Shown: positions 19,491 through 50,538 of the stretch, piece by piece | How positions within the stretch are numbered: position 1 is the stretch's first letter | Layout of the letters: every line of letters begins with the position of its first letter | Origin: an uncultured virus (IMG/VR IMGVR_UViG_3300042519_003322) | Taxonomy: Duplodnaviria > Heunggongvirae > Uroviricota > Caudoviricetes | Strand: one strand, 5' to 3' | IMG/VR virus record: IMGVR_UViG_3300042519_003322 | Length of the DNA: 64,000 bases | Made by a program: the position numbers and the translations under genes | Notes under the pieces: model-generated | The model's database searches: none | What the model saw: the letters and a program-made list of their open reading frames with translations, nothing else | Told to the model about the DNA's origin: nothing

Positions 19491-19507
19491 TACTAACGTG
19501 TCAATAC

Positions 19508-19932: not shown

Positions 19933-20283
19933 ATGGTTTCTAATAATTGGAAAAATACAAGCAAAATGAATTCGAGTTTTCCTCGGGCTATCCGGGATTC
20001 TCAAGGTCGGTCAATTTCAGGCGGGGCTTCTAGGCTGATGGATTCAGGCGGGGCTCCCAACCTAAAAAGCACTCGGCGGACTCGAAATCGCAATGCGGTC
20101 ATGGGGTTCATCTCGCTCGTCGTTCTCTACGCTGTCCTGCTGTTGCTTGGTGCGCATGTTCTGGAATCGGCAGGAGTTGTCTCGTGGTCCGTGGGCGTGT
20201 GGGATTCACTGGCACTGGCGACCATATACATCATGTGGCAGGCACTCAGCATGGTCATATGGGGCGAGGCAAAGAAACCGTAG
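19933..20283 (+). CDS. Two-TM membrane protein
   Basis: GAGGAGGAG RBS; two hydrophobic helices. Confidence 0.6.
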   Translation: MVSNNWKNTSKMNSSFPRAIRDSQGRSISGGASRLMDSGGAPNLKSTRRTRNRNAVMGFISLVVLYAVLLLLGAHVLESAGVVSWSVGVWDSLALATIYIMWQALSMVIWGEAKKP

Positions 20284-20380
20284 AGGGACTTATCTACTCT
20301 TACCGAATGGGGCGTGGCGGAAAGTCTGCCATGTAGTGAGGTGATGAAAAAAAACGAAATAATGAATAGGAGTAGTGCCA

Positions 20381-20614
20381 TCACTTATCTACTCCAGTTT
20401 CCAAACTGTCCTCTAAATCCCATTTGTGGGCGAGTGCCATTTCAGCGATGATGGGCATAACGCTCATTCCCTCAGTGCATGCCAAAGTTTCCCAATCACG
20501 CTGTGCCTGTTCGCCTGCGTACTTGCCCTGCTCTATGTCCTGCTTCATGCCCTCGTAGTAGTGGCACACTCTCGCTAGAGTTTCGTACAACTCGTCCAGC
20601 AGTTCCTCATTCAT
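20381..20614 (-). CDS. Hypothetical protein ending in motif A (GVDK*)
   Basis: GAAAGAAGG RBS. Confidence 0.6.
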   Translation of the reverse strand: MNEELLDELYETLARVCHYYEGMKQDIEQGKYAGEQAQRDWETLACTEGMSVMPIIAEMALAHKWDLEDSLETGVDK

Positions 20615-20815
20615 TTCGTAGCCTTCTTTCTAGTAGTGGTTTCTATTGTACCTTGACTTAGACCTTGCCCACTACCTCAGACGGAAAATCAAAGGAGCAT
20701 GATTCTCAACGGCTGAGGCAGTGGTGGTACATAGAGTAGATAAGTCCCCCTATGCCCAAATCCTTTCGGGGTGATGGTGGAATGAGTACCACCATCACCC
20801 TCTAAGGAGACTTAT

Positions 20816-22366
20816 CTACTCCATATCGGGAGAGGACTTGCCCATGTGGTTGAGCCATATCCTGCGGAATGTCCACGGGTACACGCTCTGCGCCTTGCCA
20901 TTTATGCGCAGGTTGCGCAGTTGCTCAATGGCTTCCTCAATATGGGGAACGACGATGTAGCCGTGTTGCTTGGCGTAGGTCATGCACTGCATGGCGAGCA
21001 GGTCAGAGAATCCGTCATTCTTTCCGCACACTCCACCGTCTGTTATCCAAACTAGAGGTGTGGTCCGATATTGGCGATTCTTTACGCCCCACTCAATAGC
21101 GGGGAAATCCACGCCGTTGCCATGTCCGTAGTCAATGTAGTCCACTGTCTCAACCATACGACCCTTATCGGCAACTACCCATGCGTTAGGAGAACCATCG
21201 TGGCGACCCTTATCGCTGTAAATCATCACTGTTGCGCCTTGTGCGTTCTCAATGATTTCAGCGATTTGTTCAGTAGTGAATGACATAGAACCACTAGCGT
21301 CAATGATGACCATGCCACCACTACCACGAACGGTCTTGTCAAAAACTCTCTTGGCAGGGTCGGTCATGAATCGGTGCATACGGCGAGGACGAATACCAAC
21401 ATTTGTGGCGATTCGCTTCTTGCCCATAGAACCAGTGTGATAGCGAGGTAGTGGCTCTCGGCTCACTCGTAGTTCCGCCCAAGAGACTGCTCCACTATTG
21501 TCGGCAGGGGCAATCTTGCCATGAGGATTCCCGTTCTTGTCTCCGTCTTTTTTGGACTCCTCGTATTCGCCACTGTGTTCCTCGCCTGACTTATCTACTC
21601 CACCTTCGGGCTTGCCATCTCCCTCTTGGTCACCCTTGCCACCCTTGCGCTTCTCAGGTGGTGAGAAACTGGCGAGCCTGTCCACCCATTCTGCGATTCG
21701 CTCAGTGTGAGTGAATCCGTATGGGGCGAGTCCATCGTGTTCGTCGGTACTTGCGAGAGTACGACTACCGTGTGCCTTGCGGATTTCTTTCATGGCTCGC
21801 TTGCCAATATCCAGCAGTGCGTCACCCCATGCTCTGTTATGCCTGCGAACACCGTTCAGGAATGTCTTGTGTCCAGCAGTACCAGCGGTAGCGATACACA
21901 TGGCAACTGCTCCAGCCCAATCATTGCTCTTGGCTAGTTGTTCTCCACTTGCTAGTTCGCTTCCGTCTGAGAGAAACTTCTTTACATCAAAGCCTCTCTG
22001 TTGGCAGAGATAGTTCACTCGTAGTTCCTCGGCAACGGTCATTGCTGTTTCTGAGGCTACTAATCGTGCTGTCCACATTTCCATTTGTTCGGGAGTCGGG
22101 GAAACTCGTGCATGCATCATTTCATGCCCACGAATAACACGCTCCATATCTCCATCTTGTGATGGGGCGAACATGATTCTTTTGGAAATGTCTGTACGAG
22201 GCTCGCCACGAACTGGTCGGCAATCCTCAACAGTCCATCGCTCATGCTCCAAGTCATTACGACCAAGCATGTTCGGTTCAGGGCGGTGTTCCCCTCTAGC
22301 AGAGTTATCTACTCCACTAGAAGGGAAGGCGCGACCCCTGCTATTTTTGGCAGGTGTAATAGACAT
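20816..22366 (-). CDS. vWA-domain (CobT-like) protein with N-terminal HExxH
   Basis: HEMMH; acidic Gly-rich linker; IIDASGSM MIDAS, GNG.D, WITDG; next to a MoxR ATPase. Confidence 0.8.
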   Translation of the reverse strand: MSITPAKNSRGRAFPSSGVDNSARGEHRPEPNMLGRNDLEHERWTVEDCRPVRGEPRTDISKRIMFAPSQDGDMERVIRGHEMMHARVSPTPEQMEMWTARLVASETAMTVAEELRVNYLCQQRGFDVKKFLSDGSELASGEQLAKSNDWAGAVAMCIATAGTAGHKTFLNGVRRHNRAWGDALLDIGKRAMKEIRKAHGSRTLASTDEHDGLAPYGFTHTERIAEWVDRLASFSPPEKRKGGKGDQEGDGKPEGGVDKSGEEHSGEYEESKKDGDKNGNPHGKIAPADNSGAVSWAELRVSREPLPRYHTGSMGKKRIATNVGIRPRRMHRFMTDPAKRVFDKTVRGSGGMVIIDASGSMSFTTEQIAEIIENAQGATVMIYSDKGRHDGSPNAWVVADKGRMVETVDYIDYGHGNGVDFPAIEWGVKNRQYRTTPLVWITDGGVCGKNDGFSDLLAMQCMTYAKQHGYIVVPHIEEAIEQLRNLRINGKAQSVYPWTFRRIWLNHMGKSSPDME

Positions 22367-22369
22367 GGA

Positions 22370-23098
22370 CTATTTCACTCCGTCCACGGCTAGAGCGTCA
22401 ATGATTTGCTTGGCTCGTGAGCCGAATGTCAGTTGGCATGCTCGTTCCATTCCAAGACTCTTGCGCAACTTGTCCAAGACCATAAAGGCTCGGAGAGAAA
22501 TGCGTTCTGTTCCACCGTCAGCCATACGAACGGCGTATCCACGCAAGTCGGGAGACAAGCGCAACAAAGCGTCGGGGTGTGGCTGGTTGATTCTGATACG
22601 AACGGGGAAACGGTCTGCGAGTGCGGTTGGCAACTCAGCCATGTTCTCAATGTTCGTGGTCATTACGGCAGAGAATCCCTCTAGAGGGCGAACACTCTCA
22701 CCAGTTTCGGGGTGCTGGAATGAGGCAGACTCGGGAGAGTCCAACATTGCGAGCAGAGTTGCGAATACATCTCCACCAGCCTTGTCCACTTCGTCCACGA
22801 TGAGGCGACCACCCTTAGTGCCATTGCCCTTCCATGCTTTGAGGGCAGAACCGTCAAGCCACTGGAATCCACCATTTGATGAGGGCATGAATCCACCCGT
22901 TACATCCATGTTGGTCATGTCCTCGGTGCAAACCAATCGGAAAGCACCTGCCTGAATATCTCCGAATGTAAGACCAGCGAAAGTCTTACCTGTTCCAGCA
23001 GGTCCGAACAGGATTACCCTGTCAATGCCTGAGTCAAGTGCGTCCTTGACATCTTGCCAACACTGTGGCAATACCGTTGCTTCGTTTATTGTACCCAT
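22370..23098 (-). CDS. MoxR-type AAA+ ATPase (CobS/CbbQ-like)
   Basis: GPAGTGKT, W.DG, LIVDEVDK, TTN, ALADRF; AAGGAG RBS. Confidence 0.88.
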   Translation of the reverse strand: MGTINEATVLPQCWQDVKDALDSGIDRVILFGPAGTGKTFAGLTFGDIQAGAFRLVCTEDMTNMDVTGGFMPSSNGGFQWLDGSALKAWKGNGTKGGRLIVDEVDKAGGDVFATLLAMLDSPESASFQHPETGESVRPLEGFSAVMTTNIENMAELPTALADRFPVRIRINQPHPDALLRLSPDLRGYAVRMADGGTERISLRAFMVLDKLRKSLGMERACQLTFGSRAKQIIDALAVDGVK

Positions 23099-23460
23099 GA
23101 TGATTTGCTCCTTTAGTAGCGGTTGGTTGGGATACACGAACCATACCACCCTCGGTACAGACTTTCATAATCTGTTTACACCTCATTATGTGTCCATATA
23201 TATAGAGAGAGACTTATCTACTCTCCATGCAGACTTATCTACTCTCCATACATATAGGGAGACTTATCTACTCTGTTCCTCTGAACGGCGGTGGCGAACC
23301 AGCAACGCACGAACTCCGATTTATCTATTACCCCCCCATTCGCCTTCACCGCCTTCCGTCGGCGAAAGCCCCGCTGGGGTGTCGGTGGTGGCCGGGGCTC
23401 CTGCCCAAAAAAGGAGACTTATCTACTCTAAGGTCTAGTCAGTAAAGAAAGGAGACTTAT

Positions 23461-23952
23461 CTACTCTTTGATATTTCTGTCAGCAACTACTCGCCACAAA
23501 CCCTTTTTTACTTTCGTGTAAAGGGGAGATTCCGTGAGGTGTCGCAGCGTTGTCTGATAAGAAAATCCCGAAATCTCAACCAGTTGTTCTGTTGAGTATT
23601 CTTGAGTTCTGTTCTCTTTCGCCCATTTATCAAAGGCGTCGTACTTCTCTTGTCGTCGTGGCATTCTGCTTCCCATGTCCAACGCCGTGGCTTCTATCTC
23701 CAGATGGGAAAGATATTTATCAGTAAAAGATTCCATGCCCTGCAATGAATAACGGCGCAATGTAGAAATGGGATTCCCAACAGAACCCTCTCTCTGCCAT
23801 ATCTCTAGAATATAAAGACCTCTGACAATTTCGGCTATTTTTGTTCTTTCGTCCCAGTGTGCGTACTGTTCTTTTGGCGTCTTATATTTCTTGTTGTATT
23901 CCGCATAAAGTCGTGCGTGTTCCTCAAGTGCGAAAGCGATGGTGAAGTTCAT
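23461..23952 (-). CDS. Hypothetical protein with C-terminal winged-helix-like segment
   Basis: YSTEQLVEISGFSYQTTLRHL..KVKKGLW; stop codon lies within motif A. Confidence 0.6.
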   Translation of the reverse strand: MNFTIAFALEEHARLYAEYNKKYKTPKEQYAHWDERTKIAEIVRGLYILEIWQREGSVGNPISTLRRYSLQGMESFTDKYLSHLEIEATALDMGSRMPRRQEKYDAFDKWAKENRTQEYSTEQLVEISGFSYQTTLRHLTESPLYTKVKKGLWRVVADRNIKE

Positions 23953-24095
23953 TTTGTTTTCCCTTTGTTTGGGTTGGTCTGCGACCATATCACTAAGGTA
24001 TCAGACTTTCTAAAGTGCTTGCGATAAAATCAAAAAAGTGCCACCGCTTGCTCGACGGTGACACTTCTTTGAGCAGTATGAGGATTGTGACTTAT

Positions 24096-24981
24096 CTACT
24101 CCAATAAGGCGAGGGCATTTCGTTGCGCACCGTCAATGAGGATTCGCAGGTCTAGGAGCATGTCCACCATCTCGGCAGAGGTCACCAACCCCCTGCCTGA
24201 GCAACTGGCTATTGCCTTGTCCAACATGACAGTTGCCTGCCCTAATAAGGTGGGGGTTGATGACTCGTCCATGACTTATCTACTCCTTTGTCTTTCGTTT
24301 TGGGGCTTCGTTCAGCAAGTCCTTGTAAGCGAGGGCATTTACAGCAAGGTGCATATAAGCGACTGTTGCCAATAGGTGGTCAGGGATTCTCCCGCCGACT
24401 TCCTCGTTCTCGTCCACCTCGGAGACAGTGCAGGTGGGTTCATCGTCAAATACGGGAACTCCCTTGTCGTCGTAGCGATACAGGGAAGTGACATTCCAAA
24501 TGTGACTGCCACTCCAGTCCACAGCCGTAAAGACGATTCCTTCTCTGACGGTAGAAAATGGATTTTCTTTGTAGTCCTTCTCAAACAATCTATTTCTGTT
24601 CACATCGCCAGCCCACTCAGTCTCCTCAGCGTCGGAAACATCATCTCTCATGTATCCCTCAACACAAAGGAGCAAGAAAGAGAATGGACGAATAGGCAAA
24701 GCATGGACAACTTCGTCATAAGCCTCTAAGACATTTTCTTTATGAATGAGAGGAACAACGGCAATGTGGTACGGAAGTGAAAGATTGTTTTCTTTTTGAT
24801 ATTCCAAAGCACCATCATGGTCAGGGTTGTCCTCATTGCTTTCCACAGCGATAAGCAGTAGCGGTGGATTGTCCTGCATGGGTTCGTCCTTGCACATTTC
24901 TGTTTTTGCGTAACAGACTCGGTTTAGGACTTCTTCCATTATGCTCTTGATGTCCTCATCAACTTTTTCTTGCGGTTTCAT
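24096..24981 (-). CDS. Two hypothetical proteins (24280-24981; 24096-24272, 58 aa, translated manually)
   Basis: GAAAGGGG RBS; both end GAG-TAG inside motif A. Confidence 0.6.
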
Positions 24982-25099
24982 TTCAGTTCCCCTTTCTAGG
25001 GATTGGTAGGTATGTGAACAGTACCACGATGGGTACAGATTTCTAAAAGTTATCTACTCTAAGTGGGAGTCGGTACAAGCCCCCACCTACAGTATTTTC

Positions 25100-25324
25100 T
25101 TACTTTTTCTTTCCAAGGAGTTTCGTTACCGAAACGCCCAATGCTTCACTTACGGCGAGCAGTGTTTCCACGCTCGGTTGGAATCGTCCATTCTCAATAC
25201 GATTTACGGTTTTACGGTCAAGACCAGCCCTGTCTGCTAGTTCTAACTGTGACCATCCATTGTCTTGTCTGCATAGTCGTACTGATTCAGAGATTACTTC
25301 TCCTGATTTTGTGATATTTCCCAT
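25100..25324 (-). CDS. XRE-family HTH regulator
   Basis: WSQLELADRAGLDRKTVNRIENG..PSVETL..VSEALGV. Confidence 0.9.
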   Translation of the reverse strand: MGNITKSGEVISESVRLCRQDNGWSQLELADRAGLDRKTVNRIENGRFQPSVETLLAVSEALGVSVTKLLGKKK

Positions 25325-25377
25325 TATGGGTTACTTCCTTCTTTGTTAGGGGGTTTGTATTTATTTACTTATTTGGC

Positions 25378-26133
25378 TTAGATAGATGAAATGAAAGTTC
25401 TTGGCGTTCTCCCTTCTTTTTCACAACGGCGAACATAGGACAAGTGCTTTTTGTATTCGGACATACAAGTAGTCATATCGTCATCGCACTGTTCCATGAG
25501 AAAGTTGTTCCATTCAGATTCGGCTTCGTACCATTCGTGGAGCATGTCATCAGTTGCTCCTTCGGCGTGGGCTTTTTCGCAAAGTTTGTGCAACTCGGGT
25601 GTCTGCCTATTAGGGTCACGATGACCCGACTCAATGGTGACTCCATTGTGGTAGACCGCCCAAAGCACAAAGGCTCGTGATTCCTCGTCTGAGGAAACTC
25701 CAAAGATGAGACTCGGATACAAAGCAGAAATAGCCAGTATTAGTCCATCGGCAGGACTCCAAGCAGTTTCGTAACGGAGAGAAAGTTGATTTTTATTGAC
25801 TTCAGGGTCATCTATCTCAACTCGGCATGCACCCCACTTACTTCCCCAAGTCTGCAATGCATTTGCGTACCCGTCAAAACCATCAGTTTCCAATGACGCA
25901 AAGACAGACATGACTGTTGTGACTTCCTCTCCCTCATCATTTTTGTGTACATGGGTACGAGTGGCACTGCCTCTTGGGTCAAGAGGAACGAGTTTGTTTA
26001 GTTCATACTCAGCAACGACTCGTGGTTGAGTTTCGTCTGACATGACATGGGCAACCGTGATATCTGCAAGAAACCTTTTGAGTTCTCGCTTACTTCCAGT
26101 GACTGTCATGTAGTTGTAGCACCAGTTTGGCAT
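25378..26133 (-). CDS. DUF1281/YubB-like ferredoxin-fold protein
   Basis: MPNWC.N...VTG; WGSKWG; YETAWSP. Confidence 0.75.
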   Translation of the reverse strand: MPNWCYNYMTVTGSKRELKRFLADITVAHVMSDETQPRVVAEYELNKLVPLDPRGSATRTHVHKNDEGEEVTTVMSVFASLETDGFDGYANALQTWGSKWGACRVEIDDPEVNKNQLSLRYETAWSPADGLILAISALYPSLIFGVSSDEESRAFVLWAVYHNGVTIESGHRDPNRQTPELHKLCEKAHAEGATDDMLHEWYEAESEWNNFLMEQCDDDMTTCMSEYKKHLSYVRRCEKEGRTPRTFISSI

Positions 26134-26401
26134 GGCTTCCTTCTTTCGGTTGGTGGGTGTGAGGAAAGCATACCATCGCTGGTACAGGCTTCTGTGTTGT
26201 GACTCTTCCACCACCGTCATTGTGTTTCCTGACTTATCTACTCTGTATGTGCTGTTGATTTCGTGCGTCCGATTTATCTATTACCCCCCAATCGCAAATT
26301 CTGCTCGCCTTCGGATTTTTTGTTTTTTCGGCGAGAGCCCCGGGGGCATTGAGTCCGATGCGGGGCTCCTGGCCAAAATAAACCCAATCGGGTGGACTTA
26401 T

Positions 26402-28264
26402 CTACTCTAATAGGCTGGCGTAAAGCAGGTTGGTCTTGACGGCCCTATCGCCACTGAGCCTTCTCGTCTGCCTGAGAAATCCAATGAGGTGGCTCACCTT
26501 TGGTAGGTGCATGTCAGTTTCATCGGACCAGCCGTAATCATCAAAGGATGACTTATCTACTGGTACTGGGGCGAACGAAATAAGTAGCACTTTTTCATCT
26601 TTGTCCGCTTGGCTCATGTGACATTCTGCTCCGACGAGAATCAGGTCACGATGAAACAAGGTATGCCGTAGGTACGACATTATGATGGACAAATACAGGA
26701 ACAGCACTTATCTACTCTGATACTGCTTTGATGGTGAAGTTCATGTCACTGGCAGGGGTCCGCTTTTTATCGTGAGGCATATAGGTCACGCCCATGGTGA
26801 GCGATAACATCATTGCCGAAATCTCAGCGTCGGTCATTCCGTAGTCATCACGCAATGTGTCCTCTAGCGAGCCATTGGCATACTCGTCCCAAATAATCGC
26901 CAGTGCTTCTACTGCAGAAGTAACTAGAGAATAGTAGTTGTACCAAATGATGTCCTGAATCTCCAATAACTCAGAAAGGCTATTTTTTGACTTATCTACT
27001 CCACGTGTCATTGGTTCACTCTCCACTCGGACTGGGGCATACAACCAAGGGCGAAAAAGTCCTCTAGTCCCTCTGCCGTTCCACAGTCTGAACAAACATA
27101 GGTTGAGTTGTCAGTGCGTGATAACGCTCCAACATATTTGCCTCGCTGTAGGTCATTTGGGATACCCCCGAAACAGCGAGGGCAGGTGTGTTGGTCAAGT
27201 GCGATACTCATGATTTTCTCATTTCTTTTTTGATTTGCTGTAACAGCATAAGGGTGTCTTTGTACATTTGACTGTCAGTTCCGTGAAGGTCGGCTTCCAT
27301 TTCTAGATTTGCCTCGTGTTCGTCGTGGAGTCTCCACAACTCGTCATCGCCTTCCTCAAGACAGGCAACATGGTCACTCCCCATCTCAACAATCTTCACC
27401 CAAGAAAGAATGGCTCGGAGAAAAGCAGAGCCAAAGTCGTAGTCGGGTGGGCATGCACGAACCTCAGTACGGAACTCCTCGATTTCGTGTTCGGGGACTC
27501 CCTCTCGTCGGAGAAAGTGGACAATCTCTGAGATGATATGGGAATCAGTCATTCCAACAATGCTGAGGCTGATGTTGTCATATTTGGGCTTTATTTGTAA
27601 GTGTGTCATGTTCCTCACCACTTGTAGTCTGTGTAAAAAATCGGATTTTCTGTGAAGTGAAGGTTGTTGCTACTTTCACTCATTCTGTATGTTCCATTCT
27701 TGCGGAGTCTCACTACCTTGACATCGCCAAGAGGGTCGGAGATTGCTTTGAGTCCTACCACGGGCAATGGCGCACCATCGGTATAGACCTGCTCTCCTCT
27801 AGTCATTGACCTGAGTGTAATCGTCTTGGCTGTCTTTTTGATTACCTCGTAACAGAGTGTGTCTGTCACCAGTGTCTCCGTCATGTACTCCTTTGTCAAT
27901 AACTCGGTCATGAATCCAGTGTTTGTCGTTTCCATCAGGAATCATCTCCATCATCATCGGCTTCGTCGTCAATGCCTTGGGGTGCTTCCACATCAGGGAA
28001 GTAAACGATAATGCCTCTGCCCATGTCATCAAAGACTGGACTGGAGAGTGCCATACACAAGTCATCGTCCGTAACCATAAGAGCGAAACGGAAAGCGTCC
28101 TGAATCCCGTCCATGTCAATGCCTAGACACTGCTTGCCATACATGTTGCGTCCGCTATAGGAGCGCAGTTCGGCTCCGTCAATGTCATTCAGGAGAGTCT
28201 GAATGTCCTCAACTTGCGTGTCCGTTAGTGCTTTGGGTTTATCCCATCCTGCTGTCATTCTCAT
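26402..28264 (-). CDS. Operon of small hypothetical genes (27935-28264, 27615-27935, 27208-27609, 27008-27211 Zn-finger, 26712-27011, 26402-about 26700)
   Basis: Overlapping stop/start chain behind the promoter at about 28310; CPRC..ALSRTDN..VCSDCG in 27008-27211. Confidence 0.6.
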
Positions 28265-28619
28265 TGGTGACCCCTTTCGGTCTTGGTTGTTGCCCAACAG
28301 TACCACGCTGGGTACAGACTTCCATAGTTATCTACTCTGATGAGACTCTTCCACCACCGTCATATATTTTCGGGAGTTATCTATTACCCCCCCATGCTCG
28401 TCTGGATTTTTCATTTTATTTTCATTTCGGAAAAACGGATTTATCTATTACCCCCCCCCATCGGCTGGATTTTCGGCGAGAGCCCCGGCCCGTTGCACAT
28501 GTCAGCGGGGCTTCTGCCTGAAATCGGGGGCGCACTCGAAAAGTTATCTACTCTACCAATGCCCAAAAAGTTATCTACTCTACTAATGCCCAGCGAAGCG
28601 CACTAGCAGAGTAGATAAG

Positions 28620-28955: not shown

Positions 28956-28957
28956 TA

Positions 28958-41562: not shown

Positions 41563-42226
41563 CAGTAGAGTAGATAAGTTCCCCCATTCGGGCAGATGGG
41601 GGTCTTATTCTCTCGGGAGCCCCGCTGCCCACCCGGCCTTCACCTCGAGATTAGAAACGTTCACCCCTCGAGATTAGAAATCCTCATTCATCAAGCCCGC
41701 TGATAAAGCGAGAAAAGCTTCATTTATGTCCCGTATCACACTATTTTTGTACTCTTCTTTTGTGAGACGTATCACGAGCGTTTCTCTATCGCGTACAAAT
41801 GGGTCGCCCGCAGGCCACTCCTCCTCCATAGGTATTTCGAGCGTGTACCAGGTGCGATTTTCTGTTTTGTGAATTTTGTATTTACGGACTCTCTCTACTG
41901 TTGAGTCAAGACGAATTTTGTCAATATCTTCATTGTGGGCCATAACCAATAGCTTACTTCTTCTTGCCACCTCTGCTTGTCTACTTTGTGGCCCGGGCAT
42001 ACAGGGCAGGTAGGTAGCTCGGTGAGTAAAACGAGACAATAGAAGGTAGGGTTTATGGCTCGGGGCCGACGACCTGTCAAGTCGTTGGTTAAATGAGGTG
42101 AGTACCAAGCACTTGATGTGAGCCGAGTGAACAGTTATGCTGCTCGCGATGAAGCCAGCCATTGTGTGAGAGAACGGCCGAACCCCGGAACACTCGCCGA
42201 ATATAAAGATGAACGAAAGGAATCAT

Positions 42227-42817
42227 ATGCCCTACGACAAAAACAACAAATGGGTTAAAAGCCCAAGCAGGACAGCGCCTACCAATCATGTTCGACCAGG
42301 AACAAGCAAACTAATCAAAGATGACGACATGAGGGGCTGGTTAATGCTTCAGAAATGGTCTGATTTCGCTCAAAGCCTCTACGATTATTGCCTAAATAAT
42401 GGCGGCTTCACTGAGAAACAATTGATGGCTGCAGAAAAATTGCGAATCAAAGTCGACTCCACATATGACCCTTATGGCAAAGGGATTTGGGAGGGGGTAT
42501 ACATAGATGACGAAGATAAATATATCTTTAAAATTTCCATTGTTACCAAAAATAATAACGAGCAAGTACGGTCAATCAGAAAACGTTTAATAGACATGCC
42601 TGGATGGTCGGACATTAAGTTGGCATCTAATAAGGCGTTGCTATTCGGGTGCATTAAGGCCGGCACTTACCGCATGCTAAACGACGATGAGCTCGTAGAC
42701 ATTGGAAGAAGAACCGGTATATGCTGCGACTGCGGAAAAGTTCTTGACAATCCTAAAAGCATTGCAGCAGGCATCGGACCATATTGTGCGAAAATGCGCA
42801 GCCAAAGCAATCAATAA
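42227..42817 (+). CDS. DUF6011-like zinc-ribbon protein (second copy)
   Basis: GGFTEKQ; CCDCGKVLDNPKSIAAGIGPYCA; GAAAGG RBS. Confidence 0.75.
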   Translation: MPYDKNNKWVKSPSRTAPTNHVRPGTSKLIKDDDMRGWLMLQKWSDFAQSLYDYCLNNGGFTEKQLMAAEKLRIKVDSTYDPYGKGIWEGVYIDDEDKYIFKISIVTKNNNEQVRSIRKRLIDMPGWSDIKLASNKALLFGCIKAGTYRMLNDDELVDIGRRTGICCDCGKVLDNPKSIAAGIGPYCAKMRSQSNQ

Positions 42818-43603
42818 GAAGGAAAAATATGACAAGCAGAGATACTTACGACATTCTCACCTACGAAGAAGAACAGGAAGAATCTATGAACGGAATCAAT
42901 ATCCAAATCAACACACTTGTAGACGCAATGATTGACGCGGAGAAGTGTTTGTTCCATAACAGCCCGGACAACCTGATGGTGAACTCTTTGCTGAGAGAAG
43001 TAGCCGGTGTCGAGGAAACGAAGAGCCCCTTTGTTTTCCGTGGCTCGCATCCGGATTTACCCGTAGGCAAGTAACCATCGTGCTCGTGAACATCACAGTC
43101 CGCAACAACCAAAGAGGCCAATGCGAGATTTGTCATCTCAAGTCGTTCAGGTACAGTAGATGGTCGCACGTACAGATGTGGTACAAGAATCACAAGTGCG
43201 TCGACGGAATAAAGACTTCCCGCAATGGCTCGATGTCGGTAGGTGTCCGATGAGATACCTTCTGCCTGAACCATTTTGCTGCGAAGCTCAACGACCCGAT
43301 GGATTTACCTACCATCAGTTCGTAACCGTGTGCGACACTTGCTTGACGCAATTCCCCTATTATGATTGTTACTGCGAGTTAGAACACGAAGATTGTAACG
43401 AGTCAACGAAACGTGCGAATATCGCCTACCGAGAGAGCAACCGATGAATAACAAACTTTATAGCAGTTTTGAGAATTGGAAATTATCACGCAAGGAACTC
43501 AAAAGGCAGCGCCAGCTTGATAACTTCGCCACCGGTGAAGGTGCGTCTGGCGAGTCGGAAATTGATTGGCTCTCTGACGTAGTACGTCACGGAGAGTAGA
43601 TAA

Positions 43604-44056
43604 CTACTCGTTATTTGCTGCTGTCTCTGTATCGTCGATACCGGAGACTATTTCCTGAGCGATTAGCTTTGCGTACTTCCTACGTAGCCGCCAGATTTTG
43701 CGGTTCATCTCTATCATCTGCGTACTCATACGGGCTTTTGTAATTGCGTCATCATCAAATACGCCGTGGATACTAAACAGTGCGTCGTGAATTTCGGTAT
43801 CTTCTATGAGTATGTCCGAAATCCAGCCCGCACGAGTGTCTATGGCCATCATCAGTTCGCATAATCCCTCTACCCCGAATTCGTGATAAAAACGATTTAC
43901 GACAATGTTACAGAAGTGCGCCTGATACATCTTTTGAGCCTTCTGTGATTGAGACATAAACTCCGATAGCCACACGGCAAGTTCGGCACTCGACTTGTCG
44001 TCGAAATCATCTGTATCGTCATCAGCGTAGTCGTCGTCGTCTCTATCATTGGACAT
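43604..44056 (-). CDS. Hypothetical acidic protein
   Basis: AGGAG RBS. Confidence 0.55.
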   Translation of the reverse strand: MSNDRDDDDYADDDTDDFDDKSSAELAVWLSEFMSQSQKAQKMYQAHFCNIVVNRFYHEFGVEGLCELMMAIDTRAGWISDILIEDTEIHDALFSIHGVFDDDAITKARMSTQMIEMNRKIWRLRRKYAKLIAQEIVSGIDDTETAANNE

Positions 44057-44123
44057 ACTTTTCTCCTGCATTCTCCGCACCACACACACGGCGACGATAA
44101 ATAAATGATAACAGCGATAAACG

Positions 44124-45149
44124 CTAAACAGCCGACAAGAGATAGTCCTGTGTCTTTAATTTAGCCCGTGACACCCACGAGTTGGCTGCCATCGACGCCA
44201 GCGCTCTTTCTGTCAAAGTAGCGTCACGATAGTGGTCTAGATATTCTCCGATTGCGTTCACGAGAGACCAACCGTTGTACCCGTAGTTTTTTGCGTTGTT
44301 ATCATTGGAGTAAATGGCACGAACAAGAGTGACTACTTCATCTCGGTTTTTTGACTGACGGTCTGTTGCGTCTTTTGCTATCGGGAATACGGTTGCTAGT
44401 GTCCTGTCAAGTATTTGTGACGATGCGGGAACACTGATTGACAAGAGTTTTTCTGCTGCTTGCGAAAATTCTTTTGCCCACGCATTAGAAATGTTTAGAA
44501 CCTCGTTGGCGTGTTCTATTGCCTTATCCGCATTGCGTGTGTGTCTCGCCGTAAATACTCGCTTTCCTGAAGCGATACCCGCAATAACGGTATTTTTACA
44601 TACGGCACGAATACTCGTATTCGCAAAAGTGATAGCAGTCTTACCGTCGTGTCCGTTGTGTACGAGTAGATATCTTTCTATTGTGTCGTTCACGCCTGTG
44701 GGGTCAATGACTAAAGAACCCATATCTATTGACGCAAAGAATTCTCGCCCGCCGTGGAGAACTCCACAAGTATCAACTACTGCGTCGCCACCCGTAGCCC
44801 CAACGATAGTGAGCGCATAATCTAGACACTCTCTATTTTGTTGGACTACATAGCGTGTCCCGACGGTTGCTAGCCCATCAAATGAGCCGTCGTCGTTCAC
44901 CCGTACAGTTGCCCGTGAGTCTGGAACGAGGATTACAGTTCCATCAGGTTGCCTAATCGGTTCACCATAGTTGTCGCACACAGCCACCCGTGCCGTTACT
45001 ACATCAAAGTCTGCCCCTGCTGCGGCGAGCATTGCGTCTGCTGTCTGGAGCCCTTTCATCGCCACGCCCATACGGTGCCAAGGGATTTCCCTATCGGCAT
45101 AAGCCATACGAGCCGTGCCGTCGTCGTTCATTTCTATCTGATGAGCCAT
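44124..45149 (-). CDS. DUF932 (phage/plasmid-like, TIGR03299-type) protein
   Basis: MAH.IE...PWH.MG; Y.V.QN; HDG; R.VC.NT; RHT; W.L.NA..EY.DH. Confidence 0.85.
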   Translation of the reverse strand: MAHQIEMNDDGTARMAYADREIPWHRMGVAMKGLQTADAMLAAAGADFDVVTARVAVCDNYGEPIRQPDGTVILVPDSRATVRVNDDGSFDGLATVGTRYVVQQNRECLDYALTIVGATGGDAVVDTCGVLHGGREFFASIDMGSLVIDPTGVNDTIERYLLVHNGHDGKTAITFANTSIRAVCKNTVIAGIASGKRVFTARHTRNADKAIEHANEVLNISNAWAKEFSQAAEKLLSISVPASSQILDRTLATVFPIAKDATDRQSKNRDEVVTLVRAIYSNDNNAKNYGYNGWSLVNAIGEYLDHYRDATLTERALASMAANSWVSRAKLKTQDYLLSAV

Positions 45150-45345
45150 TGCGTCTCCGTTTTCTGTTACTAGATAAATCTATCTGAAAAACTTGCCGTA
45201 TAGGGGAAGGAAATCTAACGGGGCTCCCGCGGACAAAAAGAGAACGGCTAGGCGTTTGGGGTTTTCCCCTCGCTTGCGAGGGGCGAGCGTGGGGGGGTAA
45301 TAGATAACTCTCGCAAGTCTGTACCCCCCGTGGTACAGTTCGGGT

Positions 45346-45840
45346 ATGAACCGAACCGAACTTCTCAACTTAGTCCGAACCACAAGCCTCAACCTGATGA
45401 ACGCCTGCGAGGGCGACGGAACCATTTACGCCTGCTACGGAGATGATGAAATCATCGCTGAGTTCCCAGGGCTTATGACCAAGGCGCAAGTCATCGCCAA
45501 GGTTCGCAAGATGGACAGCGCAACCGCCGACCACCTGAACGAGGTGCTTATGTTTTCGGGTGAGTACGAAATGGTGAACGGCGTCGCCGTTTCCAAATAC
45601 GAACTAGAACGCCAAGCCGAACTTGCCCATAAAGCGGAAGCCGACACCGACGCAGACGGCGAAGCCTACGGAGAGTTCGTGATGAATTGGGTTATGGGCG
45701 GTGGACTCGCAAGCGACGCACCACAAGCGTGGCGACAGAAAGTTCTCGGAGAAGAACCCGTGCCTTACTATATGGACATGACCCCCGAAGAGCGCGAACG
45801 AGATAATATCCGCTTTGAGATGGAACAGGAAGGGTGGTGA
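45346..45840 (+). CDS. Hypothetical protein (leaderless)
   Basis: ATG 6 nt after TACAGT -10. Confidence 0.65.
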   Translation: MNRTELLNLVRTTSLNLMNACEGDGTIYACYGDDEIIAEFPGLMTKAQVIAKVRKMDSATADHLNEVLMFSGEYEMVNGVAVSKYELERQAELAHKAEADTDADGEAYGEFVMNWVMGGGLASDAPQAWRQKVLGEEPVPYYMDMTPEERERDNIRFEMEQEGW

Positions 45841-46089
45841 CCCCAACGGGAGTAGATAACTCGGCGCACACTTGCCCGACCTAGCCCCCTCTCACCTCTA
45901 GAGCGAGGACAAGCAAGCGAGCGCATTTCTCGCTTGTGCGTCAGCCCAACGAGCGAAGCGAGGCGGGAGAGTCAAGAATTATTGCGGGGCTCCTGGCCGC
46001 TAGGGGCGGGCGTGGGGGGTGATAGATAAGTTTAGAAGTCTGTACCCGTGGTGGTACGCTAAAGGTATCCAAGTGAAAGGGGATACGAA

Positions 46090-46446: not shown

Positions 46447-47148
46447 CTAGTACGCCTGTGGTGCTTCTACCGTGAACGGTATTTTGCACTTAGGACACAA
46501 GGGGGACTCTGACCCTGCTTCGCCGAATATCGGTGACTCATCATCGGCGAGCGAGTACCCGTGAACAAGGGAGACCGCTTCGCCGTAGTTCACACTCACT
46601 GAGTGCTCTTCATCGTTCGGGCAGTGGAGATAATAATCGGCGTTGTCATACGGGAACGCTTCCGCCATATCAACCGTGACACGGAACGCCCTAGGCGTGG
46701 TATATCCGCCTCGGACATCTGCGCCCCCGTGTATTTGGAGTAGGACAAAAACTTCGTCACCGTCTGAGAATGTCACGCCCTGTAATGTCTGCGATAGTGA
46801 GTCATTCCCGTTATAGGTATTCCACGAATGAGCACTGCTGTCTTTTTCGGTTGCGAAACTTTCGGCTAATCCGAGGTGACTATCATCGGGGTTTGCTTCG
46901 CAGAAACTACGGAACTCTTCGTCTAAGAGTGGCGCATACTCAAGACGGTTGGTGAGGTAGTGATAGACAGAGAGCGTTACGCCCCAACTGTCTGCCCACG
47001 CTTCGGGTTCGCTGTTCCACTCTGAGAGCGTGCGCCCGTTATTCTTTTGCCAATGCCTCCCGTAGGCATCGCCACTATCTAGGATATGACGACCCGTGTT
47101 CTCCGTGAGCATTTCCGCAATAACTTGCTGGCTTGTGATTGTACGCAT
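46447..47148 (-). CDS. Conserved phage hypothetical protein
   Basis: ENTG.H.LDSG.AYGR.W; NTYN; QIHGGADVRGGYT. Confidence 0.65.
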   Translation of the reverse strand: MRTITSQQVIAEMLTENTGRHILDSGDAYGRHWQKNNGRTLSEWNSEPEAWADSWGVTLSVYHYLTNRLEYAPLLDEEFRSFCEANPDDSHLGLAESFATEKDSSAHSWNTYNGNDSLSQTLQGVTFSDGDEVFVLLQIHGGADVRGGYTTPRAFRVTVDMAEAFPYDNADYYLHCPNDEEHSVSVNYGEAVSLVHGYSLADDESPIFGEAGSESPLCPKCKIPFTVEAPQAY

Positions 47149-48099
47149 TTTGGATTTTCCCTTTCCGTGTAGATGTCAATACTGTACCACTAGGCGGACA
47201 GATTTAGTTATCTACTCTAAGTGGAGACAACTTATCTATTACCCCCCCACGCACCCTGTAAAAAAGGTATTTGTTTCGTGTTCGTGGGTAGGAGCCCCGC
47301 TCATTTGCTTCAGGAGATTATTTGTCCTGATGTCATGCGGTACATAACGGCATAGCAGTAACCCCTGCGTTGTTTCGTTCTGCTCTCGACTTCGGATAGC
47401 TTCCGTTCTGAGAGCCGGCCCATTTCATCCGGTGACCAATAGATGTCCAACTCCATCTCGGTATCTCTCATAAGCGATACGAGGTTTACTTCACTACCCG
47501 TGGCACTCTGGGGCGTCACGCCTGCGTCACGGCAGGCACGAAAAACTTTTGTTAGAAACAATGAACAAGTGAGCATCTGTTCTAAGTTTTCTTCATCGGT
47601 CAGGTAGTCGTTGGTCAGGTACGAAACACGAATGGACTGATGGAGGGCGTGGGGTGGCCTGTAAATTCCTGACACAGAGAGAGAGTACCACTCACTGTGC
47701 GGGCGGGTGTCCTATCCCCACTGAACTGTGTTCGTCGGTCTCTCTTCCGGCTCTACGGCAAGAACTTCTAGAAAGCTTCCCTGCTCTAGTAACTGATGAA
47801 CCATAGACACAGCTTCATCGATGCTCGATGGTGCGTCTATGTCATCTCTTTTACGGACTACGACGGTTATGCGGTAAGTGTTCATACCTAGCACCATACC
47901 GCATTACACAGTCGGGCAACACTCTGAGCCTGATAGTGCGTTTCACACGGGATACTTCTGATAATGCGTTGCGTACCATCTGAGGTAGGTACGGCTAACC
48001 ACACTTCTACGGTATTCCCAATGGTGTTGATATGAATGACTGTTCCTACCAATGAGAGTTTATCAATGGTGGTGGAGTGTAGGTCTAATGAGTTCATAG

Positions 48100-50220
48100 G
48101 TTCGTATCGTACCGTGACGGTGGTGGGTAGTCAATGGTATGGCTATCGGTATTGAGTAAGGGGTGGTAGAGGATAGGTATCCAATCAGATACCCGTAGGG
48201 TACCCGTGGCACTTGGCGATTTCGGGGGCTAAGGGGGTCAAGCACTAAGTGGAAAGTGTTAGGGGGCATAAGGGGGCATAAGGGGGATGGTGGTACGAGG
48301 GGTGGGTAGGCGTATAGATAGGCGCATAGTCATATGTTGCGGGGTGAAAGCGTCGCAAACTGCGGGGTGTGAGGGCAGGCGTACGAGGCAGGCGAGTAGT
48401 GGGGTGCGTATCACGATGTATCACGATGTATCACAATGGGTCACAATGGGTCATCGAGCAAGAGGTAGGTGGGCGAGGAGTATGAGCAAGGGGTCAAGGG
48501 GCAAGAGTAGATAAGGGTATGAGGTGGGGTAGGGATAGGTAGCGAGGGTAGGTGGCAAGGGTGAAGGTGTCGAGGTACTAGGTGGGGGTGGTAGGGGTAT
48601 GAGTACCCGTGGCATACCCGTGGCACTTGGCGATTTCCGGTCAAGGGGTTCAGTGGTGAAGGTGACGAAAGACAAGGGCGATGAACAGCGAGGGGCAAGG
48701 GTGAATGAATGAGTGAGTGATATGAGCAATGGTATGAGGGTAGGCACTAGGTGAAGGGAAGGCTATGAGTGAGTGAGTGGTGCGAGGTAGGGGGTATCAG
48801 TAGCGAGTGAGGCGCTATGTATGTATGTATGTATGTATGTATGTATGTATGTATGTATGTATGTATGTATGTATGTATGTATGAGGGGTATTAGTGAATG
48901 AGTGATATGAGTGATATGAGTGAATGAGATATGTAATAGGGGCATTAGGTAAGGGGCAATAGGTGAGCGAGTGAGGTGAGTGACTAGGTAAGGGTATTAG
49001 GTAAGTGGCGTAGGTGAGTAGTAATGAGCATGAGCAATGAATGAGTAGTGAGTGGGTAGTCATAGGCACGAGTAGTGATGAATGGTGCTAGGTGGGGTGG
49101 GTGGTATGAGTGAGCGATGGGTGAGGGGTATGAGTTAGTAAGTGAGCGAGGTAGGTGATGGTATGAGGTGATGGTGAGAGGTAGGGGGTGATGGTATGAG
49201 GGGTATGAATGAATGAGGTAGGTGATGGTGAGAGGTAGGGGGTGATGGTATGAGGGGTATGAATGAATGAGGTAGGTGATGGTGAGAGGTATGAGTGAAT
49301 GAGGGGTATGAGTGAATGAATGAATGAGTAGTGATGAATGGTGTTAGGTGAGTGAGTGATATGAGGTGAGGGGTATGAGTGAATGAGGTAGGTGATGGTA
49401 GGGGGTATGAGTAGTGAATGAATGAACGAATGAATGAATGATGGCAAGGGGTATTAGTAGTGAGTGATATGAGTAAGGGTGGTGGGGTATGACTACCCGT
49501 GAGATACCCGTAGCACTTGGCGAAAGTGATACGAGGTCAAGGGTACGAGGTAATGGGTGATGAGTGATAGGGGGTGATGAGCAGTAGGGGTGGTGGTGAT
49601 GAGCAAGGGGTATGGGTGAATGGTGATGAGTAATGGGGATAGGTGATAGGGGTATTGGTATGAGTGAGGGGTATGGGTACAGGTAAGGGGTATGGCTATG
49701 AGGTGAGGGGTATTGGTATGGGATACCCGTAGCACCTAGCGATTTCACTTATCTACTCTATTGCTTTGAGGCATTGCGTTGATGGTGTGCCTGCCCTATG
49801 CGTTGCGTTGATGGCATTGCGCATTGCGTCGTATGCGTATTGCTTATGCGTTGCGTCGTATGCGTTGCGTTTCATTGAGGCGTTGCGTCGCGTCGCGTCG
49901 TTGTATGTTGTGTGTTTCGTTTCGCTAGTGCGTTGCGATGTTGCTAGTGCGTTGCGTTTCATTGCGTGTTGCTAGTGCGTTTCGTTGAGGCATTGCGTAT
50001 TGCGTATTGCGTTGCGTGTTTCGTTGAGGCATTGCGTTTTGTTTTGTGTTTCGTTGAGGCGTTGCGTATTGCGTTTCATTTCGTATTGCGTTGCGTTTCG
50101 TGTTTAGTTCAGGGCATTGCGTTTCGTTGCGATGTTGCGTTTCGTCGTTGTGTATTGCGTTTCGTCATAGCGTGTTGCGTCGTTGCGTCATAGCGTGTTG
50201 CGTCGTTGCGTGTTGCGTTG
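48100..50220. repeat. Low-complexity, strand-biased non-coding tract
   Basis: G-rich, C-poor + strand to about 49740; (TATG)x17 at 48816-48883; 54-bp tandem unit at about 49165-49290; degenerate (GCGTT)n at about 49770-50220. Confidence 0.85.
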
Positions 50221-50538
50221 GACTTATCTATTACCCCCCCCCGTAAGCATTATCCGCCACCCCCGTAAGCATTATTCGCAAGCACTGCCCGCCCGCCCGA
50301 CTGTCCCGAACCCGACTATCGCTAGTCACTATGGGGCACTTCATTAGTGCGAGTGGGCGAATGACACTCCCCCATAACGGCGAAAAATGGGGGTGCTCTG
50401 TGAGCCCCGCACGCTTTCCGAACGCGTCAGATAGCGGTGGGCAGCCATAAATCAAAATTTAGAGCCCCTCTTTTTTTGTTTAAATTTATCCAATATCCTG
50501 AGTTGTCATAGGCCGGCGCCATACTGTATCCTCGCCTT

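Follow-up and report, generated by a model that had tools for sequence, protein, structure and literature searches.

The uncultured virus stretch analysed here (IMG/VR record IMGVR_UViG_3300042519_003322; all 64,000 nucleotides are called the window) contains a 33-kb block of small genes, at 17.3–50.2 kb, whose intergenic DNA is built from an array of short and nearly invariant motifs. From the first to the last motif copy, and according to the gene calls and the map, the array spans 17,314–50,239, mostly on the minus strand. We suggest that the block is plastic and probably expressed early, that its units are read from promoters of the host sigma-A type accompanied by core sites for a regulator, and that the modules between the genes double as recombination patches, an account to which we give slightly better than even chances. 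The array had been noticed in a preliminary description of this DNA, and the motif counts, far above chance, confirm that it is real; its start, however, had been placed at 20.28 kb, whereas the first motif lies at about 17.3 kb.

About 47 open reading frames (ORFs) were called in the array, besides small uncalled ones. Most lie on the minus strand, with plus-strand gene islands at 40.2–41.4, 42.2–43.6, 45.3–45.8 and 46.1–46.3 kb, and they appear to form at least 21 short transcription units of 1–4 genes each. Most of their products have no Pfam or PHROG family, and the host-takeover or anti-defence role proposed for them in the preliminary description is for this reason conjectural.

Short motifs in a repeated order

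Motif A has the consensus (A/T)nAGAGTAGATAA(G/C)T(C). Its 10-mer GAGTAGATAA was found 73 times, where 0.12 copies are expected, and always between 17,314 and 49,758. The scan and the sequence logo place 55 copies on the minus strand (17,314–49,758; starts at 17314, 20290, 20385, 20812, 21591, 22305, 23214, 23235, 23264, 23419, 23457, 24092, 24276, 25050, 26234, 26398, 26708, 26992, 28328, 28544, 28571, 28942, 29596, 29630, 30186, 30503, 31173, 31801, 32013, 32391, 32720, 33435, 34028, 34225, 34578, 35156, 35648, 35676, 35875, 36123, 36605, 36757, 36786, 36814, 37185, 37335, 37761, 38255, 38537, 39310, 39513, 46292, 46395, 47208 and 49749) and 18 on the plus strand (20,734–48,514; starts at 20734, 28609, 29655, 30538, 30552, 33412, 33463, 34606, 35905, 38284, 39545, 40584, 40854, 41568, 43594, 45850, 46322 and 48505). 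Nine of the 18 plus-strand copies are partners of inverted pairs, TTATCTACTC-N15–28-GAGTAGATAA, which sit just 3′ of stop codons and at convergent gene ends, and the remainder belong to the plus-strand gene islands. Although ORFs cover 62% of the region, 67 of the 73 copies lie outside the called ORFs and only six inside. Six copies end 2–4 nt ahead of an ORF start codon and include the upstream stop.

Motif B, GGGGGGTAATAGATAA, has 21 sites at three or fewer mismatches against 0.33 expected, 18 of them exact and three with one mismatch. Fifteen of these 16-mers lie on the minus strand (23,321–50,239; starts at 23321, 26274, 28377, 28441, 29488, 30236, 31883, 32920, 34100, 35754, 36646, 38133, 39349, 47232 and 50224) and six, including the three with a mismatch, on the plus strand (30,348–46,029; starts at 30348, 33030, 40158, 40968, 45292 and 46014). 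Motifs A and B have the core TAGATAA(G/C)T in common, which in B comes after a G run. Core sites are 3–4 times commoner than the promoters described below and also occupy gene ends and stop/start junctions.

In the direction of transcription, the map reads gene, motif A (often as an inverted pair or tandem run), inverted repeat, motif B, sometimes a fifth motif (TTGACGGTGGTGGAAGA), motif A, promoter and 1–4 genes. The four-part order given in the preliminary description holds along the map. Its remark that the sequence between the motifs is not conserved also proved accurate, as this sequence differs in every copy and only the short motifs are alike. The far end of motif B, which had been put at 45–50 nt past the repeat, lies there in 10 of 14 repeat-B pairs, the full range being 40–62 nt. 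The count of about 15 modules with the repeat agrees with our 15 repeats, but the repeat is not part of every unit, as there are 21 promoters. The reported flips of the motifs to the plus strand together with the genes at 40.1–41.6, 45.3 and 46.0 kb are borne out by the map and the strand counts: between 17 and 40 kb, motif A occurs 51 times on the minus and 11 times on the plus strand, with 33 genes on the minus strand and one on the plus strand, and at 40.05–41.65 kb all three copies are on the plus strand and none on the minus strand.

One putative promoter type with an upstream core

The putative promoter, P2, is a 45-bp composite of the core, about 5 nt, GGAAGTC, TGTACC, 5 nt and TGGTACnnT. 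The strict 22–23-mer AAGTCTGTACC-N5–6-TGGTAC has eight exact copies against 0 expected, and a looser pattern (GGAAGTC-TGTACC-N5-TGGTAYnnT type) gave 23 matches, two of which are reverse readings of palindromic sites, leaving 21 distinct P2 sites. On the minus strand, P2 was found at 23,140–23,166, 25,018–25,044 (upstream of g33, a gene for an HTH_3 protein), 26,167–26,193, 28,297–28,323, 29,449–29,475, 31,141–31,167, 31,769–31,795, 32,888–32,914, 33,997–34,023, 34,449–34,475 (within a repeat-bounded cassette), 35,124–35,150, 35,615–35,641, 36,572–36,598, 37,731–37,757, 38,102–38,128, 38,505–38,531, 39,287–39,313 (where motif A itself takes the −35 position) and 39,981–40,007. The plus-strand sites are 40,988–41,014, 45,313–45,339 and 46,034–46,060. 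The sites beginning at 28,297, 29,449, 31,141, 31,769, 34,449, 38,102, 45,313 and 46,034 also fit the strict pattern, while those beginning at 32,888, 33,997 and 35,124 are looser matches.

The elements of P2 resemble a −35-like box (TTGGAA/TTAGAA), a 17–18-nt spacer holding TGTACC, and an extended −10 box (TGGTACnnT). Extended −10 boxes of actinobacteria follow the pattern TGnTAnnnT, which the −10 box of P2 fits. A dyad, GTACC-N6-GGTAC, lies inside P2, and 20–40 nt after P2 a conserved leader, CCAACTGAAAGGGGA, with the ribosome site GAAAGGGGA precedes the start codon. Every promoter is preceded by the core, separated from the −35 region by about 5 nt; from this place, roughly −46 to −40, a bound protein can help or hinder the polymerase. 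Most P2 sites have one motif A copy upstream. The same anatomy is common to three lineages, with 21 sites in the window, about 17 in the relative G002 and about 18 in the relative G005. A consensus promoter scan flagged 5–6 of the P2 sites, and in that scan promoter-like sites overall were not enriched (13 found versus 19.9 in shuffles).

Scans with Pfam and PHROG identified no RNA polymerase, sigma factor or recombinase in the 90 ORFs of the window or the 155 ORFs of G002. As no phage polymerase or sigma region 2 was found, the host polymerase must read the region, and if the unmodified host enzyme reads P2, expression would be early. From these features we infer that P2 is an early-read promoter of the host sigma-A type. 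Since one promoter type and one upstream core recur across the units, co-regulation, as had been proposed, is the natural reading.

An inverted repeat held by sequence

The inverted repeat AGCCCCG-N15–22-CGGGGCT has 14 exact copies, all within 23,367–40,937, and was never found in 100 shuffles. The pattern scan located them at 23,367–23,399, 26,336–26,367, 28,481–28,512, 29,533–29,564, 31,938–31,968, 32,969–32,999, 34,147–34,177, 34,505–34,536, 35,802–35,833, 36,695–36,727, 38,181–38,211, 39,404–39,435, 40,095–40,126 and 40,907–40,937. A 15th copy at 30,284–30,316 has one arm mismatch (3′ arm CGGGGCC). The copy at 32,969–32,999 has outward-facing B motifs on both sides (32,920–32,935, minus; 33,030–33,045, plus) between divergent ORFs, that at 40,095–40,126 marks the point where minus- and plus-strand genes diverge, and no motif B follows that at 34,505–34,536. 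The repeat sits 60–150 nt upstream of P2. Its arms lie in a longer consensus palindrome, TTTGGGGCAGA-AGCCCCG…CGGGGCT-TCTGCCCCAAA, and its loop measures 17–19 nt in the window and 16–20 nt across 36 repeats. The G run of motif B starts at +27 to +33 from the repeat in most pairs of all three lineages, despite the lineage-specific sequence of B.

The repeats do not conform to the definition of an intrinsic terminator, with a short loop and a U run. No U run directly follows the stem in any of the 15 repeats (at 40,907 a T run starts 7 nt later), and a consensus terminator scan, whose loop limit is 8, flagged none of them. RNA folding of the 15 repeats was modestly above shuffles, with z-scores of −0.6 to −3.6 and one of +0.56. 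A permutation test for covariation over the 36 repeats gave no significant position (smallest p 0.057), departures from the outer palindrome on one side are uncompensated on the other, and by eye there is no compensatory change between the paired B copies of G002. This lack of compensatory change in the outer stem and the paired B copies favours protein recognition of DNA over an RNA helix. Together, the long loops, the missing U run and the sequence-held arms make it more likely that proteins recognise the repeats as double-stranded DNA than that the repeats act as RNA. No match to the repeats was found in Rfam at the gathering score, where the window yields a tRNA only. Canonical hairpin-plus-T-run terminators occur on the minus strand at 30,577–30,612 and 31,195–31,228, directly after g41 and g42, and at 24,030–24,072; the phage thus uses ordinary terminators in the array besides the conserved repeat.

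Confinement and constraint in related lineages

Scanning IMG/VR for two A copies 10–40 nt apart returned a family of contigs with the same motif A, promoter, repeat and fifth motif. The grammar was found in two further lineages, namely G002 and the group G003–G006. Motif A, repeat and promoter of G003–G006 are those of the window, while their motif B reads GGGGG-TGTGA-GAGATAA; in G002 it reads GGGGG-AGTG-GTAGATAA. Outward-facing B on both sides of the repeat is found at many G002 repeats and at the one window repeat mentioned above. A scan with the composite of motif A and promoter detected about 11 contigs, all of this clade, and four of five contigs with a single match were chance matches. 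Single matches of the 16-mer B in IMG/VR remained at chance level, and several copies occur only in the window's own lineage. Motifs A and B, the repeat and P2 are absent from three contigs with 40% protein identity (L019–L021), in which the fifth motif is present.

The record of G002 is complete, with 156,276 bp and ends that overlap by 123 bp. Within it, 117 of 119 GTAGATAA cores and all 14 repeats fall between 88 and 132 kb, or 28% of the genome. The motifs are thus confined to one region of a complete relative, contrary to the even genome-wide spread that the preliminary description had named as counting against its proposal. The core strand again changes along this region, with 60 minus and 21 plus copies at 88–117.2 kb and 23 plus and three minus copies at 117.2–127 kb.

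Alignment of six contigs that are 90–99% identical to the window (L017 and L067–L071) demonstrates that the motifs are under constraint. Changes affected 553 of 5638 aligned positions in other intergenic DNA (9.8%) and 1241 of 15776 in called coding sequence (7.9%), compared with two of 492 in motif A, none of 128 in motif B, none of 105 in the repeat arms and one of 105 in the promoter boxes of P2. The repeat loops changed at 19 of 143 positions (13%). As the arms are near-invariant and the loops drift, it is the sequence of the arms that is held, whereas the loop keeps its length and varies freely in sequence.

Several smaller observations concern the same motifs. One motif A copy lies inside gene 29, which encodes 516 amino acids (aa), at 21,591–21,600, about 770 nt from the gene start; it is kept in L017 and at the equivalent place in G002 (100,833–100,842), and is read in the sole stop-free frame. 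The fifth motif also recurs, in the form (T/A)TGACGGTGGTGGAAGA, with seven copies in the window (15,851–31,830, minus strand), 10 in G002, seven in G005 and 7–11 in L019–L021, with their 40% protein identity. At 15,865 and 16,170 it is followed 17–18 nt later by TAnnnT, at 28,361 and 31,830 it opens an 11-codon mini-ORF (MTVVE…) whose stop lies at or just after motif A, and at 18,058 it is the N-terminus of g23. Comparable mini-ORFs of 9–10 codons occur in G002 and G005. In four modules (34,540–34,580, 35,840–35,875, 38,215–38,255 and 41,578–41,600), CCATTCGA lies about 10 nt past motif A, and three copies of CCTTCTCGAATGTG lie around 39.4–40.1 kb (39,440–40,090). Three likenesses of motif A were dropped: to a DnaA box (TTATCCACA vs TTATCTACT) for the orientation bias and the position fixed to the promoter, to a sigma-28 −10 box (GCCGATAA) as no −35 partner appears in the logo of A, and to an UP element as 13 invariant bases are not needed for one.

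Most cassette differences end in the modules

Homologous cassettes of the window, G002 and G005 are 35–90% identical, and their order is permuted. The window has g46, g45, g44, g43, g42, g41, g40, g39 … g35, G005 has g44, g41, g43, g40, g39, g42, g35, and G002 has g44, g46, g43, g42, g41, g40, g39, g35. Almost no counterpart of g47–g63 of the window exists in G002 or G005, with weak matches only for g54, g57 and g61, and the helicase lies elsewhere and is inverted.

Between close relatives we found 10 cassette-scale differences. Five of them end in a repeat copy or within 20 bases of one, and two are whole-gene swaps; seven of the 10 end in the repeat, motif A, the A-P2 composite or the P2-leader, in keeping with the expectation that breakpoints fall in modules. 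Difference 1 is a unit of 351–358 bp in the window, made up of a promoter, a 61-aa ORF and one motif A, which lies between the repeats at 34,505–34,536 (its upstream end) and 34,147–34,177 (its downstream end) and is missing in L071. In L071 a single repeat has the upstream copy's loop but the downstream copy's flank, so that the crossover falls in the 3′ arm. Difference 2, a 1566-bp unit between two repeats that distinguishes G005 from G003, also has hybrid flanks, with a crossover within the repeat that cannot be placed. Difference 3 is a 700-bp plus-strand unit of the window, missing in L068, which starts 4 nt past the 3′ arm of the repeat at 40,907–40,937 and ends 19 nt past an orphan arm. 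In difference 4, gene 50 (49 aa; cassette at 37,185–37,344, minus strand) lies between direct repeats of GAGAGTAGATAAGTGATGA, that is, motif A plus the start codon, and is missing in L070. Difference 5, again G005 versus G003, is a 440-bp one-gene unit between two A-promoter copies with a 46-bp overlap. Whole ORFs are replaced between a conserved promoter-leader and a conserved 3′ flank in differences 6 and 7, and small ORFs are added or exchanged at a ribosome site or start codon in differences 8–10. Besides these, an indel of 59 bp stops at the border of an A copy; for smaller indels no relation to the motifs was seen.

Between copies of the repeat, the arms and their consensus flanks share 10–18 bp, perhaps sufficient for recombination by annealing, and recombination at short repeated homology would be the simplest mechanism of shuffling. 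The proposal of a dedicated shuffling system can be retained only in part: cassettes have been gained, lost and swapped at modules, but no recombinase was found among the ORFs of the window and G002.

Candidate binders and a proposed mechanism

We propose that the core is the site of one sequence-specific DNA-binding regulator, most likely encoded by the phage, which would control all promoters together and would also affect the elongating polymerase at the additional oriented core sites. The repeat together with motif B would form a second protein-recognised DNA element of the unit boundary rather than a classical terminator. Because the modules are repeated 15–70 times within 33 kb, they would serve as short homology patches, and recombination between them might delete, insert or replace single-gene cassettes and leave neighbouring units intact, possibly with a Rad52-type annealing protein and an exonuclease supplied by the phage itself. 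Among the products of G002 are a Rad52/22 protein and a PD-(D/E)XK/Cas4-like nuclease.

Two genes of the window are candidates for the binders. The product of g27 (19,484–19,882, plus strand), in which Pfam recognises an HA domain and a helix-turn-helix (HTH) resembling sigma-70 region 4, could bind an asymmetric site; its recognition region is invariant in the three lineages, and the gene is missing from the syntenic place in the distant relatives without the motifs. The best Foldseek matches of its structure model, with E-values of at least 0.46, are HTH domains of resolvases, LuxR-type regulators and sigma factors. The other candidate, the 74-aa Cro/C1-type HTH_3 protein of g33 (25,100–25,324, minus strand), is encoded behind its own A-P2 and might bind the P2 dyad.

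Alternative explanations

The signals could instead act in RNA, with the repeat and the inverted A pairs as hairpins that end transcripts, stabilise them or are cut from them, and with the A copies near starts as a translational operator. The early genes of T7, for example, are separated by RNase III sites. The location of the nine inverted pairs, the six A copies that include a stop ahead of a start codon, the motif orientation tracking transcription, and the outward B copies around G002 repeats, which fold to hairpins of about 140 nt with −60 to −88 kcal/mol, would all suit such a role. It is harder to reconcile with the 16–20-nt loops, the modest folding scores and the missing U runs in an array that has canonical U-tailed terminators elsewhere, and with 36 repeats in which the stem sequence and not the pairing is kept; nor does any Rfam family match. 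Moreover, the core upstream of the −35 region lies outside that promoter's transcript, and at the divergence point the repeat with B on both sides receives no transcript. We therefore regard action in RNA as unlikely, albeit with some points in its favour. A different role for motif A, as the −10-like box of a modified or alternative holoenzyme or as a sigma-dependent pause, would explain its strict orientation with transcription, its place at the −35 position of the P2 at 39,310, its resemblance to the −10 region of P2 in G002 (TGGTAGATA vs TGGTACnnT), and its position 17 nt past the TTGACG/ATGACG of motif C in some modules (G002 111142, G5 22445). However, the spacing to motif C ranges over 17–27 nt, no upstream partner at a fixed distance emerged from 75 aligned AGTAGATAA copies (the 73 A sites and two shorter matches), TAGATA is without the final T of the actinobacterial TAnnnT box, and no phage sigma factor or polymerase was found, all of which makes a promoter or pause element quite improbable.

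The repeat might also be an attC-like, site-specific recombination site of an unrecognised phage recombinase, and the array an active cassette platform. Arms of 7 bp that are invariant around a variable centre, two indels joined exactly within the repeat, one of them with its crossover in the 3′ arm, a third that begins at a distance of 4 nt from an arm and has its other end next to an orphan arm, and oriented core sites flanking the repeat at a fixed distance, like arm-type sites, are what such a site would leave, and the invariant arms, free loops and exact breakpoints may reflect a site-specific mechanism. Yet no integrase, resolvase, HUH, DDE or transposase domain was detected in the 90 ORFs of the window (E up to 0.01) or in the 155 ORFs of G002, and Phage_integrase in particular gave no match in the window at that threshold or in G002. 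Other indels use repeats of A or P2 or none, reordered cassettes are not bounded by the repeat (g41 and g42 move separately despite sharing one repeat interval), the cassettes have their own promoters, and annealing at 10–18 bp may suffice. A recombination site is for these reasons a quite improbable explanation, and we are just as sceptical of its extended form, an integron-like virus platform which actively captures, excises and inverts self-expressed cassettes and in which the same core-binding protein switches all of them off together. Finally, the modules might be relics of a selfish palindromic element, similar to a miniature inverted-repeat transposable element, that spread through intergenic DNA with no role for the phage. 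Many copies, all intergenic, and the arrangement of reverse B, 30 nt, repeat, 30 nt and B in G002, which looks like a 140-bp element with terminal inverted repeats, would agree with this origin. It is nevertheless very improbable: no transposase was found, the likeness between copies is restricted to the short motifs, with different sequence in between each time, the motifs stay near-invariant while adjacent bases drift, and in three lineages the core keeps a fixed place at the promoter and follows the orientation of the genes.

Our preferred account, regulator sites at host-type promoters with modules that double as recombination patches, also has several points against it. Promoter use, timing and transcript ends are predictions from the sequence. 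The candidacy of g27 and g33 comes only from the type of their domains, their positions and their conservation, the structure model of g27 (mean pLDDT 68) has no Foldseek match in the Protein Data Bank (PDB) at E ≤0.001, and a core that is identical in three lineages whose proteins are 50–85% identical also fits a host factor. Three of the 10 breakpoints lie at ribosome sites or start codons, outside A, B, the repeat and P2, and as all intergenic DNA here is dense in motifs, some coincidence of breakpoints is expected, for which no formal null was computed. The sites in the constraint test were picked as perfect in the window, which introduces some bias, although the contrast is large. A homologue in G002 is present for 25 of 47 array ORFs and 30 of 43 flank ORFs, so that 22 of 47 and 13 of 43, respectively, are without one, a modest contrast.

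Comparison with known systems

The likeness to PeSL (promoter-early stem-loop) elements of T4-type phages and to the stoperators of cluster A mycobacteriophages, which had been suggested, is apt according to the published descriptions. PeSLs are described as small intergenic composites that join a strong promoter for the host sigma factor to a stem-loop of G and C runs, with A+T-rich DNA upstream of −35 (PMC2839356). They are concentrated in hyperplastic regions of small orphan genes and bound indels and replacements between close relatives, with varied crossover points (PMC2839356; PMC4122927), and their authors speculated that the GGGG…CCCC stem is a protein target (PMC2839356). Termination of transcription by a stem-loop in or touching the promoter, and excised mini-circles, also characterise PeSLs. 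The array likewise appears to have a sigma-70-like promoter per element (21 sites), with A+T-rich DNA upstream of −35 and a stem-loop of G and C runs, lies in a plastic block rich in orphan ORFs, and shows indels and replacements whose ends fall in the elements, again at varied crossover points. In contrast to PeSLs, it belongs to a phage group and a host phylum unrelated to those of T4-like myoviruses, and its stem-loop does not lie in or touch the promoter but 60–150 nt upstream, with a long loop and invariant 7-bp arms. It also has two further elements, the 73 copies of A and motif B at a fixed 30 nt, and its conservation is limited to short boxes, compared with the approximately 100 conserved bp described for PeSLs.

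Stoperators are asymmetric sites of about 13 bp, present in tens of copies at promoters and in short intergenic spaces (PMC9283540). Motif A resembles them as described, with 73 copies of a 13–14-mer at promoters, intergenic or at stop/start junctions, and oriented with transcription. Unlike the genome-wide stoperators, the array sites lie within one quarter of the genome, are 3–5 times more numerous and in many cases form inverted pairs. The stoperator system includes a monomeric immunity repressor with an HTH and a stoperator domain, in a temperate phage; in the Pfam and PHROG scans we recognised neither a relative of this two-domain repressor nor an integrase. A further parallel is found in the start-associated sequence (SAS) and extended start-associated sequence (ESAS) of cluster K, a 13-bp asymmetric repeat in the non-structural part of the genome, in one orientation and 3–7 bp before the start codon (PMC3203893). 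It sometimes holds the upstream stop, and DNA-binding proteins were proposed for the accompanying imperfect inverted repeats, which have a variable spacer and departures that speak against RNA pairing (PMC3203893). The array similarly pairs a 13-bp asymmetric repeat, confined to the non-structural part of the genome, with imperfect inverted repeats whose departures do not support RNA pairing. Compared with the SAS and ESAS described, only six of the 73 A copies adjoin a start codon, the ribosome site is in the leader (GAAAGGGGA) rather than in A, and the repeat, with a 16–20-nt spacer, lies upstream of the promoter and not of a start-codon copy of A.

In integron attC sites, inverse core sites of 7 bp enclose a variable centre, recombination takes place at the conserved 3′ core, and integron cassettes with single ORFs end in such a site. 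The 7-bp arms, the variable centre and the single-ORF cassette ends of the array are similar; differences are that no adjacent tyrosine-recombinase integrase was found in the window or G002, and that the array has promoters for each cassette, a far shorter centre and other breakpoints off the site. The best reading appears to be that the array works like PeSL combined with stoperator- or SAS/ESAS-like sites and is a member of none of these systems by descent or by all defining features.

The carrier phage and neighbouring features

The carrier phage, of about 156–170 kb, has tail genes of the myovirus type. Pfam and PHROG recognise WhiB, DUF732, DUF6011, DUF3846, DUF932, an SNF2 helicase, SSB, thioredoxin and a VanY-type lysin in the window. 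In G002 there are genes for capsid, portal, terminase, baseplate and collagen-like fibres as well as for ribonucleotide reductase, ThyX, two WhiB proteins and several small HTH proteins. Because of the WhiB, DUF732 and Rpf-like genes in the window or G002, the host is probably an actinobacterium. Apart from g33 with its generic HTH_3, nothing in the PHROG and Pfam scans, where a cluster A repressor was not used as a query, matched an immunity repressor; since no repressor relative was recognised and no integrase was found, the phage is probably not temperate. A megablast search with 8 kb and a tblastn search with gene 29 identified no cultured relatives among 50,697 phage records. The terminase is at most 44% identical to any cultured phage record, and the helicase is a distant match, 31% identical, to Arthrobacter phages. 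The nearest record, G001, overlaps the window at 45.3–64 kb only.

G+C content is higher in the array than elsewhere in the phage, with 0.49–0.54 at 20,000–47,000 of the window versus 0.41–0.47, and 0.53–0.58 at 96–136 kb of G002 versus 0.45–0.49. At the upstream end of the array, the 1.85 kb at 47,900–49,750 have no called ORFs and an extreme strand skew, with a GC skew of +0.6 on the plus strand; they hold (TATG)17 at 48,816–48,883, 54-bp repeats at 49,166–49,399 and five CCAAGTGCCACGGGTA-like boxes on the minus strand. As to their function, one can only guess at an origin, a region involved in injection or a stretch for Rho loading. Runs of TTGCGT-type repeats (ACGCAA on the transcribed strand) fill 49,800–50,220, just upstream of the first motif B, and a similar ACGCA-rich stretch occupies the equivalent place in G002 (about 130.5–131.2 kb).

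Genes for sugar or nucleotide modification in the window (1,318–5,142 and 17,356–18,063) encode a glycosyltransferase, a HAD/NTP-transferase fusion, a methyltransferase and DUF1599, and G002 has RmlB/C/D-like enzymes and a nucleotidyl transferase at 133.6–137 kb; glycosylation of DNA or virions is possible. The sole match of Rfam and ARAGORN in the window is a tRNA-Met (CAT) at 57,706–57,782 on the minus strand. Two large products of G002 are a polyvalent protein of 2978 aa (prohead protease, ArdC, MPTase, UvrD) and one of 3061 aa that carries an RNase_T exonuclease domain. Beside the head genes of G002 lies a 2401-aa ORF (14,259–21,464, locus L087), for which the idea of a virion RNA polymerase was unsupported, with no Pfam, PHROG or PDB sequence match.

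Conclusions

The principle of PeSL, by which repeated regulatory cassettes both express and shuffle accessory genes, is not peculiar to T4-like phages. In the array we meet it again, in large phages of an unrelated lineage whose hosts are probably actinobacteria, and with a motif set that is richer and sharper. As the motif set marks unit boundaries to the base, it offers a way to delimit accessory cassettes in metagenomic phage contigs and to follow the exchange of cassettes between strains. From the 73–119 copies of one invariant core we predict that about twenty promoters answer to a single master regulator; if true, this would be a lytic-phage counterpart to stoperator-type control.

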